From the IMG/VR virus record IMGVR_UViG_3300042539_000942: a DNA stretch of 64,000 nucleotides; one strand, given 5' to 3'. Below, piece after piece: positions 24,922 to 60,810 of this stretch. The stretch's first letter is position 1; every line of letters starts with the position of its first letter. Below the pieces are notes generated by a model. That model did not search any database, had not been told where the DNA came from, and was given only the letters and a program-made list of their open reading frames with translations. Source of the DNA: an uncultured virus (IMG/VR IMGVR_UViG_3300042539_000942) (taxonomy: Duplodnaviria > Heunggongvirae > Uroviricota > Caudoviricetes). The position numbers and the translations under genes are program-made.

Positions 24922-26634
24922 GTGATTATTTTTCAGAAAATTCGTTGGCGTAACTTTTTAAGTACGGGAAATCATTGGAGTGAGATTGATTTTCGGAAAA
25001 ACAATAATACGCTAATCATTGGCAGTAATGGTGCGGGAAAAAGCACCATTCTTGATGCCTTGACATTTTCTTTATTTGGGAAACCATTTAGGAAGATTAA
25101 TAAACCACAGTTGGTCAATTCTTCAAATGAGAGAGATTGTTTAACTGAAATTGAGTTTTTAATCGGAGCAACTCAATGGAAAGTTGTTCGTGGAATTAAA
25201 CCAAACATCTTTGAGATCTATAGAAATAATGTTCTATTGGATCAATCAGCAGCTGCTTTGGATCAGCAAAAGTGGTTGGAACAGACTGTTCTCAAAATGA
25301 ACTATAAGTCTTTTACTCAAATTGTAATTTTGGGTTCAAGTACTTTTGTTCCTTTTATGCAGTTGTCTGCTGCTAACCGTAGAGAAGTTATTGAAGATCT
25401 TCTTGACATTAAAATCTTTTCTTCAATGAATGTTATTATTAAAGATAAGATTCGTTCCTCTAAAGAGGAAATTCGTACTCTAGAATTGAAGAAAGAAAAT
25501 CTCAAAGATAAAATGAAGATGCAGCAAAACTTCATTGAGGAACTTGAGAATCGTGGAAATGCCAACATAAATGCCAATAAAGAAAAAATTGCCAATTTAG
25601 ATTCTGAAGTTGGCATTTACATGAATGACAATTCCAAAATCGAAGAAAACATTTTTAAGTATACTAAGGATCAGGAAGAAGTTACTGGTGCTAGTAATAA
25701 GTTAGTAAAACTGAACAATCTTAAGGGTAAAATTTCGCAAAAAGTATCTGTCATTACCAAAGAGCATAAGTTTTTCACAGAGAATACGGTATGCCCTACT
25801 TGTACTCAAACTATAGAAGAAGAGTTTAGGGTAAATAGAATTACAGACGCTCAAAATAAAGCAAAGGAACTCCAACTAGGTTATAAAGAACTAGAGGAGA
25901 CTATAAGGTTAGAACAAGAACGAGAGCGTCAATTCACTGCTCTATCTAAGGAGATTACAAAACTCAATAATGAAATTTCTCAAAACAATACTCGGATTTC
26001 CCTCAACCAGAGACAAATTCGAGATCTTGAATCTGAAATTCAAACTATTACCGAACAACTTGAAAACAGAAATACTGAGCATGAAAAGTTAAAAGAATTT
26101 AATCACCAATTACAAAATACCTACGAGCAGTTATCTTCCAAAAAAGAAGAAATTAATTATCTAGATTTCTCTTATTCGCTTTTAAAGGATGGTGGAGTTA
26201 AAGCAAAAATCATTAAGAAGTACTTACCGCTGATAAATCAGCAAGTAAACCGTTATCTTCAGATGATGGATTTCTACATCAATTTTACTCTTGATGAAGA
26301 GTTTAACGAAACCGTCCAATCACCTATTCATGAAGACTTTTCTTATAGTTCTTTTAGTGAAGGTGAAAAGATGAGAATTGATCTTTCTCTTCTCTTTACT
26401 TGGAGAGAAGTTGCTAGATATAAAAATTCTGTTAACACTAACTTACTGATTATGGATGAGGTTTTTGATTCATCACTTGATGGATTTGGAACCGATGAGT
26501 TTCTTAAAATCATACGTTATGTCATTAAAGATGCTAATGTTTTTGTAATCTCCCATAAGACTGGCATGGAGGACAGATTTGAAAGTGTCATAAGATTTGA
26601 TAAAGTCAAAGGATTTTCTCGTATGGTGTCTTGA
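24922..26634 (+). CDS. gp46: Recombination ATPase subunit gp46 (Rad50/SbcC-like)
   Basis: GSNGAGKST, CPTC zinc hook, FSEGEK signature and MDEVFD. Confidence 0.96.
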   Translation: MIIFQKIRWRNFLSTGNHWSEIDFRKNNNTLIIGSNGAGKSTILDALTFSLFGKPFRKINKPQLVNSSNERDCLTEIEFLIGATQWKVVRGIKPNIFEIYRNNVLLDQSAAALDQQKWLEQTVLKMNYKSFTQIVILGSSTFVPFMQLSAANRREVIEDLLDIKIFSSMNVIIKDKIRSSKEEIRTLELKKENLKDKMKMQQNFIEELENRGNANINANKEKIANLDSEVGIYMNDNSKIEENIFKYTKDQEEVTGASNKLVKLNNLKGKISQKVSVITKEHKFFTENTVCPTCTQTIEEEFRVNRITDAQNKAKELQLGYKELEETIRLEQERERQFTALSKEITKLNNEISQNNTRISLNQRQIRDLESEIQTITEQLENRNTEHEKLKEFNHQLQNTYEQLSSKKEEINYLDFSYSLLKDGGVKAKIIKKYLPLINQQVNRYLQMMDFYINFTLDEEFNETVQSPIHEDFSYSSFSEGEKMRIDLSLLFTWREVARYKNSVNTNLLIMDEVFDSSLDGFGTDEFLKIIRYVIKDANVFVISHKTGMEDRFESVIRFDKVKGFSRMVS

Positions 26635-26648
26635 GACACCAGATAACA

Positions 26649-26819
26649 ATGCAAGTTCCAAACCGATACCATCATTCTAAGAAGGAGCAGAAGCGGAAAC
26701 TGAAACCGCAAGCACTCCGACAAGCAAAGGCACGTCGCCAAGCACTCAAGAAGCGTCTCAATCAACGAGACGCTTTTTCTATAGTTATGTTAAGCAATTG
26801 TTGTAATTTCCATACATAG
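26649..26819 (+). CDS. Small highly basic protein with internal terminator
   Basis: MQVPNRYHHSKKEQKRKLKPQALRQAKARRQALKKRLNQRDAF...; stop at 26817-26819. Confidence 0.65.
   Translation: MQVPNRYHHSKKEQKRKLKPQALRQAKARRQALKKRLNQRDAFSIVMLSNCCNFHT
26753..26780 (+). terminator. Intrinsic terminator located inside ORF 26649..26819
   Basis: GCGTCTC-AATCAAC-GAGACGC-TTTTTCT. Confidence 0.75.
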
Positions 26820-26889: not shown

Positions 26890-27051
26890 ATGCACAACTT
26901 AATTTCATACAATCAACTTGCTTTCTGGAAACAATCTGAAAAAGAAACTGAAGATAATGAATTGGTGAATGACTATTACCGATGTTTGACCGAATGTAGT
27001 GATGATACGCAAACGTGCAAAAGAACTTGCAGACTAGTCTTTATGAAATAA
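26890..27051 (+). CDS. Small Cys-rich protein (twin CX3C), not in ORF track
   Basis: GGAGG SD, then 53 aa MHNLISYNQLAFW..DYYRCLTECSDDTQTCKRTCRLVFMK. Confidence 0.7.
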   Translation: MHNLISYNQLAFWKQSEKETEDNELVNDYYRCLTECSDDTQTCKRTCRLVFMK

Positions 27052-27054
27052 GAT

Positions 27055-27110
27055 GGACAGTTTTTAAACTGTCTACTGGGAGGTCGCAAGACCTCCTTTT
27101 TTAGTATAAT
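27055..27110 (+). promoter_or_regulatory. Inverted repeat + terminator hairpin + TATAAT (putative early promoter element)
   Basis: GGACAGTTT-TT-AAACTGTCT, GGAGGTC-GCAA-GACCTCC-TTTTTT, and TATAAT at 27105. Confidence 0.55.
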
Positions 27111-27132: not shown

Positions 27133-29316
27133 ATGCCTGTCAATCACGAAATCAAGTCCCAACTTGCTAAGTTGCTTGCCACTGAGGATCTTGTGGTGGA
27201 GCATAAAAAGGTTGAAACTGCCTGCTTTAACGTTCATACCCGTGTATTGACTCTTCCTCTCTGGGAACGTGCTAGCAGCACCGTATACGATCTTCTGGTG
27301 GGGCATGAAGTCGGTCACGCACTTTATACTCCCGATGAAGATTGGACTGAGACTGTAAAGATTCCACAACAATTCGTGAATGTGGTGGAGGATGCTCGCA
27401 TTGAGAAACTGATGAAGCGTCGTTATGCTGGTCTTGCCAAAACTTTCTTCAATGGTTATAAAGAGTTGAAGGAAGATGATTTCTTTCAGTTGGAAGATGA
27501 AGATGTTTCTTCCTTCAATCTTGCAGATCGGGTGAATCTTTATTTCAAAATTGGTAATTTTATTCCTCTCGATTTTATTCCTGAGGAGAAAGAAATTGTT
27601 GACTTGATTTCTGCAACAGAAACTTTTGCTGATGCATTGATTGCTGCAGAAGAACTTTATAAGTACTGCAAAAAGGAGAAAGAACAGAAACAAAAAGTTG
27701 CTCAATTTGATTCGCACGATCAGCAGGGTAATTCTACTGATGCTGGTGATGAGCAAGTTGAAGTCGAACAAGATCCAAACTCTGAAGAGGATGGTGATTC
27801 TAACTCATCACAAACTCAACAATCTGAAGAAACTGGTTCTTCTGAAGGAGATGCAACTAGATCTGATCTTCCTGGTGATGAAGCAGAACCTGAGATTCGC
27901 ACTGCAGAATCTTTGAAGGATAAAATTCGTGATCTTGTGAATTCTGATGGTCATGAGAATGTGTATGTTGAGATTCCACAAGTAAATCTTGAAACGGTCA
28001 TTGGTAAAAATATCGAAGTTCATTATGATATTGATGCCTGCTTTGGTCATCAACAAATGAAGCACAATGAACTAGCATCTGAAAATAATTTCAAACCAAC
28101 TCATCTTTTTCAAGAAGTTGATAATGAATACAAGAAATTTAAACTTTCTGCACAAAAAGAAGTTAATTATCTTGTAAAGGAATTTGAGTGCCGTAAGGCA
28201 GCAGATTCCTATGCCCGTTCTTCAACTGCTAGGACGGGTGTTCTTGATACTTCCCGTATTCATTCATACAAGTATACAGAAGACTTGTTTAAGAAAGTCA
28301 CTGTGATTCCCGATGGAAAAAATCACGGTCTAGTATTTGTTTTGGATTGGTCTGGATCAATGCAAAATGTTCTTCTAGATACTTGCAAACAACTCTTCAA
28401 TCTTATTTGGTTCTGTAAAAAAGTTTCCATTCCTTTTGAAGTTTATGCCTTTACGAATGAATGGAGGCGAGGTGAATACAATTATGAAGATGGAACGTAC
28501 AAAGCAGCAGATCGCAATTCACACTATGAGAAAAAACAAGGTCTTCTTCAAGTTGATGAGACTTTTTCTTTGATGAATTTGCTCACGAGTAAAATTTCTG
28601 CTAAAGATCTGGAGCATCAAATGGTAAATGTGTGGCGTCTTGCTGCGTGTTTTTCTGATTTGTATTATACAAATTATACATATCCAACTCGTTTGTGTCT
28701 TTCTGGAACTCCTTTGAATGAATCTTTGATTTCACTTCATCAAATTCTTCCCAAGTTTCAGAAAGAAAATAAACTACAAAAAGTTCAGTGTATTGTATTA
28801 ACCGATGGTGAGGCAAATTATGTTCCCTATCATCGTGAAGTTAAACGTAATTGGGAAAATGAACCTTATCTTGGTCTTTCTAGTGTAAATCCTCATAATA
28901 CTTTTCTTAGGGATCGCAAACTTGGAACTACCTATAAATTTGATGGAAGGTATCATCAATTTACAGACACTCTTCTCAATAATCTGAAAGATAAGTTTCC
29001 TTCGGTAAATTTTATTGGTATTCGTGTTCTTGCTGGTCGTGATGTGAATCGCTTTATCAATCTGTATCATACTTGTGCTGATAAGTATTATGATACGATT
29101 CAAAATGACTGGAAAAAACTGAAAAGTTTTACGATTAAAAATTCTGGTTACGATGCTTATTTTGGTCTTTCTTCTGTTGCACTTTCTCAAGATACTGAGT
29201 TTGAAGTTGCAGAAGATGCTTCTAAAGCACAAATCAAATCTGCTTTTGTGAAATCTTTGAAAACTAAAAAACTCAATAAAAAGGTTCTTGGGGAGTTCAT
29301 CTCTCTTGTTGCATAA
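27133..29316 (+). CDS. CobT-like protein (HEXXH peptidase-like N-domain, acidic linker, vWA domain)
   Basis: HEVGH, NVVEDARIE, MIDAS DWSGSM, GTPL and LTDGE motifs. Confidence 0.85.
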   Translation: MPVNHEIKSQLAKLLATEDLVVEHKKVETACFNVHTRVLTLPLWERASSTVYDLLVGHEVGHALYTPDEDWTETVKIPQQFVNVVEDARIEKLMKRRYAGLAKTFFNGYKELKEDDFFQLEDEDVSSFNLADRVNLYFKIGNFIPLDFIPEEKEIVDLISATETFADALIAAEELYKYCKKEKEQKQKVAQFDSHDQQGNSTDAGDEQVEVEQDPNSEEDGDSNSSQTQQSEETGSSEGDATRSDLPGDEAEPEIRTAESLKDKIRDLVNSDGHENVYVEIPQVNLETVIGKNIEVHYDIDACFGHQQMKHNELASENNFKPTHLFQEVDNEYKKFKLSAQKEVNYLVKEFECRKAADSYARSSTARTGVLDTSRIHSYKYTEDLFKKVTVIPDGKNHGLVFVLDWSGSMQNVLLDTCKQLFNLIWFCKKVSIPFEVYAFTNEWRRGEYNYEDGTYKAADRNSHYEKKQGLLQVDETFSLMNLLTSKISAKDLEHQMVNVWRLAACFSDLYYTNYTYPTRLCLSGTPLNESLISLHQILPKFQKENKLQKVQCIVLTDGEANYVPYHREVKRNWENEPYLGLSSVNPHNTFLRDRKLGTTYKFDGRYHQFTDTLLNNLKDKFPSVNFIGIRVLAGRDVNRFINLYHTCADKYYDTIQNDWKKLKSFTIKNSGYDAYFGLSSVALSQDTEFEVAEDASKAQIKSAFVKSLKTKKLNKKVLGEFISLVA

Positions 29317-29334: not shown

Positions 29335-29889
29335 ATGAAAACTTTTAACGAATTTATTTCTGAGGCAAGAGAATTAAATGAGACTTCTCTCACTCGTGTG
29401 ATGAGAAAGTCTGAAAAAGGTGGTACAGCAATTCTTTCTGGTCAACGCGGAGATAAGTCTAAAAAAGAAAACAAGGAAAGGTCTGCAAGAACAGAAAGAA
29501 GAATTAGAGGTGCTGGACTACCAGGACCTACTAAAGTATCTGGACGTTACACAGAAAACCCAGGAACTCCAGAAGAGAAAAAGGTGGGAGAAAAGTCTCA
29601 TGTAGTTTCTTCTGGCAAAATGGGTAAGAGAAAGTTTAAAAAAACTATAGAGAAACTTGGAACTGAAGGCGGATTGAAGCATAAGCGTAATGTGAAAGGT
29701 TCATCCAAAGATGATCAAGATTCTGTACTGATTCAACGTAAAGGTGGTGGAGAAGCAACACTTAAAGGAACTTCAAAAACATCTTGGCCAGGTAAAGGTA
29801 AAAATGTTAAAGTTGGTGGTATGAAACCAGGAAGAACTGGTGAATTTGATACAAAAGTCAAAAACAAAACATTTACATATGAAGCATAA
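29335..29889 (+). CDS. Basic hypothetical protein with capsid-targeting-like leader
   Basis: N-terminus MKTFNEFISEA; ATAAATA at 29313-29319. Confidence 0.75.
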   Translation: MKTFNEFISEARELNETSLTRVMRKSEKGGTAILSGQRGDKSKKENKERSARTERRIRGAGLPGPTKVSGRYTENPGTPEEKKVGEKSHVVSSGKMGKRKFKKTIEKLGTEGGLKHKRNVKGSSKDDQDSVLIQRKGGGEATLKGTSKTSWPGKGKNVKVGGMKPGRTGEFDTKVKNKTFTYEA

Positions 29890-59611: not shown

Positions 59612-59802
59612 TCTCGGGATGACTTAAAAAGCGCCCTGGTCGGGATAGTACCCCCTTTAGTCACGGAGAGACTTTAAAAGTACTGGTGGAGTCAATATGA
59701 CCCCTTATGAGTTTACGGCATCTCTCAAATGACGTTGGTGCGGATGGAGGCAACTCCCGCCCAGTTTCTTGCCTCTGGTCAAAGGGCAAGTGGCGAGCCT
59801 GA
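59610..59802 (+). ncRNA. manA/wcaG-type structured RNA upstream of the sugar-epimerase genes
   Basis: Repeated hairpin + UGGY(G) units (AGTC..GACT hairpins, CCAG/CTGG stem). The wcaG motif of cyanophages has UGGYG repeats and precedes NDP-sugar epimerases. The exact family assignment was not verified. Confidence 0.6.
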
Positions 59803-59810
59803 AAGACCTA

Positions 59811-59847
59811 AAGGAGAGTTGCATAAACTCTCCTTTTTTAGTATAAT
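59811..59847 (+). terminator. Terminator hairpin overlapping a sigma70-like promoter
   Basis: AAGGAGAGTT-GCATA-AACTCTCCTT-TTTT; TTGCAT-17-TATAAT. Confidence 0.7.
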
Positions 59848-59868
59848 AACAAAAAACCGTGCAAATAA

Positions 59869-60810
59869 ATGATACTAGTCACTGGTGGTGCAGGATTTAT
59901 TGGAAGCAATTTCCTACACTTCATTAAGGATAAGACAGATGAAAAAATTATCGTGATTGATAATCTGACTTATGCTGCTGAATTAGATTACATCCCCAAT
60001 GAATCTAAGTTTGAGTTTGTTTGGTGTGACATTACAAATGAAAATCATGTAGATTATTTGTTTAAAAAGTATAAACCAAATAAAGTATTTCACTTTGCAG
60101 CAGAAAGTCACGTAGATAATTCTATTAAAAATTATAGACCATTCTTAGAATCTAATGTAGTTGGAACTATTAATCTTTTAAATTCTAGTTTGGCAATTGA
60201 TGTTGAAAAATTTCATCACATTTCTACTGATGAAGTTTATGGATCATTGGAGTACGATGATGAGAATGTCTTTACAGAAAATACTCCTTACGATCCAAAA
60301 AATCCTTATTCTGCGAGCAAAGCAGCATCGGATCATTATGTGAGGACATGGCATAATACCTATGGTCTTCCTTATCTGATTACAAATTGTTCAAATAACT
60401 ATGGTCCACATCAACACATTGAAAAACTTATTCCCAAAGTAGTCATAAATTCTTTGAATGATAAAGTCACTTACATGTATGGTGGTGGGGAACAAATTCG
60501 TGATTGGTTGCATGTGATGGATCATGCCAATGCTATTTGGATGTTGGAAGAACAAAACGTATTGAATGATCGTTTTAATGTTGGTGGTTCTTGTGAACTT
60601 AAAAACATTAATGTAACTAAAAAAATTCTTGACATTTTGGATAAACCATATAGTTTGATAGAAACATCTGATGAACGTCCTGGACAGGATAAAAGATATG
60701 GAATGGATCATTCAAAACTAACAAATAAAATTGGATGGGTTCCTGAAGTAAAATTTGACAAAGGATTGGAAGATACTGTAAAATGGTATGTGAATAGAAT
60801 CAAGTTATGA
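59869..60810 (+). CDS. rfbB: dTDP-glucose 4,6-dehydratase
   Basis: GGAGFIG, AAESHVD, STDEVYG, YSASK and NCSNNYGP motifs. Confidence 0.9.
   Translation: MILVTGGAGFIGSNFLHFIKDKTDEKIIVIDNLTYAAELDYIPNESKFEFVWCDITNENHVDYLFKKYKPNKVFHFAAESHVDNSIKNYRPFLESNVVGTINLLNSSLAIDVEKFHHISTDEVYGSLEYDDENVFTENTPYDPKNPYSASKAASDHYVRTWHNTYGLPYLITNCSNNYGPHQHIEKLIPKVVINSLNDKVTYMYGGGEQIRDWLHVMDHANAIWMLEEQNVLNDRFNVGGSCELKNINVTKKILDILDKPYSLIETSDERPGQDKRYGMDHSKLTNKIGWVPEVKFDKGLEDTVKWYVNRIKL

Follow-up and report, generated by a model that had tools for sequence, protein, structure and literature searches.

The question raised by this locus is whether a small, basic open reading frame (ORF) of a cyanophage, which carries a terminator-like hairpin ahead of its stop codon, is expressed from non-stop messages and acts in ribosome rescue in the manner of ArfA and BrfA, as the initial annotation had proposed. 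The window, i.e., the whole stretch of 64,000 nucleotides that was analysed, is a T4-like cyanophage region that also contains nine tRNAs and one wcaG RNA (Rfam, ARAGORN), together with ORFs that, by their sequences, are uvsW-, gp55-, and gp47-like. The small ORF begins 14 nt after the stop of gp46, and because so little separates them, the two are probably co-transcribed; the neighbour of the small ORF is annotated as gp46 also in S-SKS1, S-SM2, P-HM2, and S-SRM01. The features concerned are as follows.

24922-26634, + strand: gp46 (SbcC-like recombination endonuclease subunit), from the ORF list, named from annotated relatives
26649-26819, + strand: small basic ORF with 56 codons up to its stop in the genome, assigned to phrog_3309 by a match over residues 1-38 (E 7.8e-12)
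26649-26762, + strand: conserved 38-residue core (alignments, AlphaFold2 model, synonymous excess)
26748-26778, + strand: terminator-like hairpin with core stem 26753-26773, its 5' arm formed by the last core codons
26774-26781, + strand: U-tract and predicted RNA 3' end (from sequence), implying a non-stop message of about 44 codons
26782-26819, + strand: tail past the predicted 3' end, not conserved and differing in length and sequence among homologs, with the genomic stop
26890-27051, + strand: phrog_665 small gene, ending just ahead of the downstream module (internal control)
27056-27110, + strand: stand-alone module of palindrome (27056-27073), hairpin (27078-27097), U-run, and TATAAT (27105-27110)
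27133-29316, + strand: phrog_459 peptidase gene, which usually follows members of the phrog_3309 family

The layout first described for the small ORF is present in the DNA. The 56-residue product is rich in lysine and arginine, with 14 such residues and a single Asp or Glu among residues 1-38; the stem (26753-26759 paired with 26767-26773) encloses a 7-nt loop and is followed by TTTTTCT at 26774-26780, and the in-frame TAG at 26817-26819 lies 43 nt past the stem. The folding energy is -10.4 kcal/mol for the core stem and -15.7 kcal/mol with the A:U extension to 26748-26778, an equally strong hairpin with U-tract arose in none of 300 codon-order shuffles of the ORF, and the region folds with z = -2.6. 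A consensus terminator scan of the window does not list the hairpin at 26753-26773. The finder used in this analysis returned 20 terminator-like sites on the + strand of the window, comprising 10 that lie 26-89 nt past the stop of the upstream gene, 6 deep inside long genes, 1 without a nearby ORF, 2 that are ambiguous, and the hairpin of the small ORF itself. Given the 6 sites deep in long genes, an ORF-internal hairpin is not rare by itself; a single instance proves little and the case thus rests on homologs. A longer ORF starting at TTG 26631 was rejected because homologs begin at ATG 26649, as was the idea that the site encodes tmRNA or another structured RNA, since Rfam and ARAGORN report none there and variation is mostly synonymous.

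On sequence evidence, the small ORF encodes a real basic protein of about 38-41 residues. It belongs to phrog_3309, to which the PHROG library assigns no function and whose members are basic proteins of 38-41 residues in cyanophage myo- and podoviruses. Synonymous changes account for 47 of the variant codons in the largest cluster (84 loci) and non-synonymous ones for 24; in alignments together with an AlphaFold2 model (pLDDT 87), the N-terminal half is extended and bears P-N-aromatic-x-x-H-S, and residues 20-39 form a basic helix. Phage records matched by two tblastn queries numbered 121 and 209, and only 2 and 8 of them, respectively, are not named Synechococcus, Prochlorococcus, or Cyanophage; the matches include T7-like podoviruses and S-TIM5, and a profile search gave 168 clusters at 50% identity. 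Two subfamilies can be distinguished, namely the KPQ type of the window and a GKG type with a Gly-containing stretch at the same place, of which 14 of 14 members tested match the phrog_3309 profile and 85 of 120 proteins are 43 residues or shorter. The family is thus a widespread cyanophage gene that annotation has often missed: it is left uncalled in the records of S-SRM01, S-SKS1, P-SSP2, and P-SSM2, and in S-SM2 a 45-residue member (L084:1201-1338) carries the label 'gp5 baseplate hub + tail lysozyme', an evident misannotation. In S-RIM2 (L086:1201-1725) and in P0166, the core is fused in frame to two different passenger proteins, each starting with a signal-peptide-like hydrophobic stretch, and in these fusions it may be released or anchored after cleavage. 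Searches for named relatives were negative. Pfam gave nothing beyond noise at E up to 10 (11 and 14 members, with no match to ArfA, PF03889), NCBIfam gave no match, and the ESM Atlas returned unnamed clusters only. Fold searches with a 40-residue model produced no PDB match in Foldseek, one family member at E 2.7 in BFVD, and a best Z of 3.1 in VIA-align. A match to uL29 in PDB-sequence profile searches (E 0.42-6.9) was rejected as chance. Among the largely open-access papers listed by literature searches, none on phrog_3309 or its non-stop layout was found.

The position of the stop codon was compared across homologous loci, with each scan comprising the best 80 loci, so that sampling is biased and the counts below hold among the listed loci and are not population frequencies. 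The first scans kept 214 distinct loci after removal of duplicates, 13 truncated loci, and 1 low-scoring locus; 187 of these are non-stop (the stop lies beyond the predicted 3' end), 21 lack a terminator, and 6 have a stop inside the transcript (175, 33, and 6 with a stricter finder). A GKG-directed scan added 71 of its 81 loci (9 duplicates and 1 truncated locus were dropped), with 14 non-stop, 54 without terminator, and 3 with a stop inside, giving totals of 201, 75, and 9 among 285 distinct listed loci. Clustered at 75% identity, 29 of 71 clusters are non-stop and 38 lack a terminator; by subfamily, the non-stop, terminator-less, and stop-inside clusters number 25, 13, and 2 for KPQ and 4, 25, and 2 for GKG. 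Among non-stop loci, hairpins unrelated in sequence occupy the same codon position, and the tails are random in length and sequence, the stop lying 7-101 nt past the stem in the 175 non-stop loci of the first count. In 47 of the 201 non-stop loci the stop begins no more than 9 nt from the stem and could therefore be transcribed, and 27 of the 201 have only 4 U in 8, the late-promoter-type loci having 5-8 (97 of 97). The non-stop layout recurs in several neighbourhoods: downstream of gp46, in L171 behind a gp23-like gene with its own promoter, in P-SSM2, and in L068 between what are, by sequence features, presumably tail-tube and portal genes. Terminator-less loci encode proteins with a median of 42 residues, most ending right after the core; 44 of them outside the gp46 neighbourhood (by a rough gp46 test) overlap the next start codon, and the stop-bearing copies sit in arrays of small coupled genes. 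The expectation that homologs would not place their stop before the hairpin is borne out in the cluster of the window, where 83 of 84 loci read through it, but the arrangement is not family-wide, with 75 of 285 loci lacking a terminator. The many ordinary, terminator-less copies indicate that the non-stop layout belongs to the lineage and locus rather than to the family. In the P-SSP2-like podoviruses L082, L173, and L174, a C-rich arm with a mismatched partner at the usual hairpin position resembles a decayed hairpin. In the clade of the window (L001-L080), about 150-200 nt past the family start, the hairpin is usually followed at once by an inserted, variable gene that has a T4 late promoter, and the N-termini of the inserted genes are alike (L-x-E-A-Y).

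In marine phages the hairpin forms part of a module before the peptidase gene, consisting of palindrome, hairpin, U-run, and -10 box, and the 3'-terminal codons of the small ORF lie directly on this module in many of the marine relatives. It is probably a combined terminator and early promoter, 'early' being deduced from the -10 box together with the classification of the P-HM2 peptidase gene as Early. Promoters have reportedly been mapped in Syn9 by Doron et al. in 2016. The module provides a control for read-through, as different genes precede it. Among 157 distinct peptidase upstream regions (9 without a called hairpin and 1 without an assigned ORF), all 66 other genes end ahead of the hairpin, whereas in the 81 regions with a family gene that gene extends beyond the U-tract 79 times and has its stop inside twice. 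Read-through past the hairpin is gene-specific. At the 66 loci, many different upstream genes end 42-55 nt before the 3' end of the module hairpin.

This overlap also gives rise to the most serious alternative, which is possible if somewhat doubtful: that the gene of a small nucleic-acid-binding host-takeover protein has come to overlap the palindrome and hairpin of the promoter/terminator module that belongs to the following gene, and that its non-stop message is tolerated and not selected, with enough protein supplied by read-through or ArfB release. As the last helix codons are themselves the palindrome, a stop could not precede the module, and right after the U-tract, a -10-like box is found in 22 of 31 cluster representatives and a T4 late promoter in 4. 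Copies away from such modules are ordinary genes of 39-43 residues, which also fits. Against it, the spacer or the variable loop could hold a stop, yet in-frame stops touch the loop in only 2 of 129 hairpin haplotypes (about 10.5 expected by shuffling; 6 and 18 in the other frames), and only 1 (L128) is genuine; from codon 40 onwards, 2 stops are found where 6.3 would be expected (P 0.03). The depletion of stops is not significant when each cluster is represented by a single sequence (3/31 versus 17/62, p 0.06; 1.5 versus 2.7, P 0.33), which favours mere tolerance. Also against tolerance is the clade of the window, in which another gene intervenes and a separate, complete module serves the peptidase gene, yet the family gene still keeps a hairpin of its own. 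The family hairpin covaries: in 30 hand-picked relatives of equal loop length, 99.3% of cells pair and 3 pairs are changed on both sides. The non-stop state requires 9 changes, at least 3 of them forced, and may be one old event with losses; with a possible single origin the loci are not independent, a point that again suits a frozen arrangement. Taken together, these patterns provide moderate evidence that the non-stop message is maintained.

The layout invites comparison with known rescue systems. BrfA (YqkK) of Bacillus subtilis is short and basic, lacks a GGQ motif, and is encoded by a gene with an intrinsic terminator before its stop (PMC6881298 and PMC8012679). Its structure is PDB 6SZS (PMC8012679). 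ArfA and BrfA are described in the same papers as unrelated in sequence while sharing layout, basic character, and a dispensable tail (PMC8012679, PMC6881298), so that missing homology does not exclude a shared function for phrog_3309. Each of the two factors is also species-specific (PMC8012679). The traits of this class that are present here are the terminator inside the ORF ahead of the stop, in the window and in 201 of 285 listed loci, and a basic core with an unconserved tail. With Escherichia coli ArfA, phrog_3309 shares the non-stop layout and the poorly conserved tail, but it lacks the roughly 22 residues, including a helix, that precede F25 of ArfA. With BrfA it shares the short basic protein without GGQ and the terminator before the stop; unlike BrfA, whose helices are N-terminal, it has a C-terminal helix and an extended N-terminal half, it is phage-borne, many of its relatives have normal stops, and its rescue activity is putative. 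ArfB (YaeJ) differs in that the 38-residue core has no GGQ peptidyl-tRNA hydrolase domain.

As first reported, no significant similarity to ArfA or BrfA exists in Pfam, hhalign, or PDB-sequence profile searches, the last of which, at E up to 10, returned no BrfA and only uL29 and an N peptide. The AlphaFold2 model is a single helix, which makes fold matches to BrfA or ArfA uninformative (best Z 3.1). The hhalign probability against ArfA is 0.2% and 0.1% for KPQ-dominated alignments and 2-4% for the GKG type, in which P-x-aromatic...K-G-T/S aligns without gaps to F25...KGKGS of ArfA, a match noticed after the fact. In ArfA, an aromatic residue and a beta-strand serve RF2, and a basic stretch containing Gly follows them and serves the mRNA channel. 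Column shuffles scored as high as this register in 3 and 5 of 150 cases for GKG and in 29 of 150 for the KPQ type of the window, from which the register and any KGKGS-like stretch are absent. These profile comparisons place the gene in phrog_3309 and outside ArfA and BrfA, although it may work like them. The tail was initially described as more hydrophobic. A tail is present, but it is not specially hydrophobic: among non-stop cluster representatives, its mean GRAVY is 0.48 in frame and 0.54 and 0.94 in the other two frames, as fits a by-product of U-rich DNA. The hydrophobic, destabilising tail of ArfA is thus not matched, and a selected hydrophobic degron was rejected because the in-frame value lies below both others.

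ArfA homologs are themselves known in phages, e.g., pelagiphage HTVC027P (PMC12753301). Of 12 such records, 6 were inspected: in 5 the stop directly follows the core, and 1 (RXM) has, by eye, a hairpin and U-run before its stop, so that stop-bearing and hairpin-before-stop forms parallel the two forms of phrog_3309. Unannotated ArfA-like ORFs were also seen in L336 (pf16), L341 (RsoM2USA), and L340 (CRP-212), two of them covered by hypothetical genes on the opposite strand.

Expression data come from P-HM2, whose gp46-linked homolog is transcribed and classed as Mid, the following peptidase gene being Early in the light (supplement file 6 of PMC5082946). RNA contigs from two metatranscriptome runs (5-6% of words) were set aside as evidence on 3' ends, since they derive from distant relatives, mostly less than 90% alike, and cannot show ends. 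On the host side, ArfB exceeds the cut-off in 53 of 61 host-family genomes and ArfA is found in 0 of 61; hosts mostly have ArfB, and a backup is thus already present. PMC11633108 yielded no passage under three cyanobacterial names. A cellular origin of the family is not supported. None of 5 GTDB matches is host chromosomal: in 4 there are T4-like capsid or gp46 genes nearby, and the remaining match, a 2-kb contig, is almost the same sequence as one of those 4. Among 201 host-family genomes, 3 match the family, one in a phage contig and two as stop-bearing copies in a context that does not look phage-like. These two GKG copies (L330:1335-1475 and L331:1480-1620) lie beside a shared ORF of about 197 residues and broken remnants that are, by eye, kinase-like, a setting that looks like a mobile element.

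The explanation that is tentatively preferred, with a probability well short of even, is a ribosome- or RNA-binding phage protein that would be throttled by non-stop expression in the myovirus lineage of the window, with a putative rescue role. The initial proposal of a rescue-type non-stop gene survives in its layout and in the gene-specific read-through of this lineage; as a description of the whole family it does not, and the hairpin often belongs to the promoter module of the next gene. By this account, the protein of about 38-41 residues would bind the host ribosome or another RNA, as its charge, size, and extended-plus-helix shape suggest. The transcript, shared with gp46, would end at the hairpin, and ribosomes would reach the RNA 3' end without meeting a stop, most of the product being tagged and destroyed via tmRNA. 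By analogy with ArfA and BrfA, stable protein would accumulate only on saturated trans-translation, through read-through, or through untagged release by ArfB. Its most likely job would be to keep ribosome cycling going during infection, as a convergent rescue-type factor, and stop-bearing relatives would represent forms free of this regulation, as among the phage ArfA homologs. What the sequences show is a coding gene, a hairpin conserved in position, and gene-specific read-through; termination, tagging, ribosome binding, and rescue are inferred.

The same architectural evidence would serve a second alternative, that non-stop expression is selected to restrain a potent protein unconnected with rescue, e.g., a binder of the ribosome, RNA polymerase, or nucleoid in host takeover. 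The occurrence of stop-bearing copies in small coupled gene arrays agrees with it, as do the absence of an ArfA/BrfA hallmark from the KPQ type and the presence of ArfB in the hosts. It is nonetheless unlikely, and the middle-period rather than early class of the gp46-linked copy in P-HM2 argues against it.

Attenuation or antitermination is improbable. Here, translating ribosomes would melt the hairpin and so tie downstream transcription to translation, or the Arg-rich helix would bind such hairpins as N peptides bind boxB and would regulate its own terminator. The hairpin does lie within the ORF, and coupled ribosomes can block intrinsic terminators (PMC7858274). Phage N-type peptides likewise present a short Arg/Lys-rich helix, and one of them (PDB 1NYB) is the sole PDB sequence match of the GKG profile, although E 0.61 over 16 residues is chance level. 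Unlike N peptides, phrog_3309 is accompanied by no conserved boxB-like hairpin sequence, its hairpins being variable. Downstream genes usually have their own promoter and vary freely, and the peptide is conserved where the hairpin is absent, and thus acts in trans. That no termination occurs at all, the hairpin serving in DNA as part of a promoter, or in RNA as a stem for stabilisation or processing, with all 56 residues translated, is very improbable: weak U-tracts in several marine copies, finder sites deep in long genes, and the omission of the hairpin from the consensus scan speak for it, but against it stand the random tails, the 5-8 U in 8 of every late-promoter-type locus, and the fact that other genes always end just before such modules, as before a terminator.

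The preferred reading of a throttled ribosome- or RNA-binding protein can be extended, more speculatively and with a rather low likelihood, to the view that phrog_3309 is an independently evolved, virus-borne rescue factor of cyanophages, which T4-like myoviruses would tie to host tmRNA load via a promoter-module terminator and which podoviruses and others would carry free of such control; the GKG type may keep an ArfA-like core remnant. If phrog_3309 were indeed tmRNA-controlled and ribosome-rescuing, it would be a further convergent rescue factor and a case of a virus that senses translation stress in its hosts, photosynthetic microbes abundant worldwide. On a duller reading, the existence in nature of one 40-residue protein in both stop-bearing and non-stop forms still provides a ready-made test of selection on non-stop genes. 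What the present analysis adds to the original observation is the control at a shared module, a large subfamily whose members mostly have normal stops, and the overlap with promoter modules.

Two further observations were made in the window. A gene of 184 residues at 29335-29889 falls just at the Pfam cut-off for S-AdoMet lyase (28.3 versus 28 bits), and in L291 a gene resembling it comes after the family gene. At 59707-59870, a terminator-like hairpin with its end at 59833 lies downstream of the wcaG RNA, and a candidate ORF of 47 codons reads through this hairpin and stops 36 nt later.
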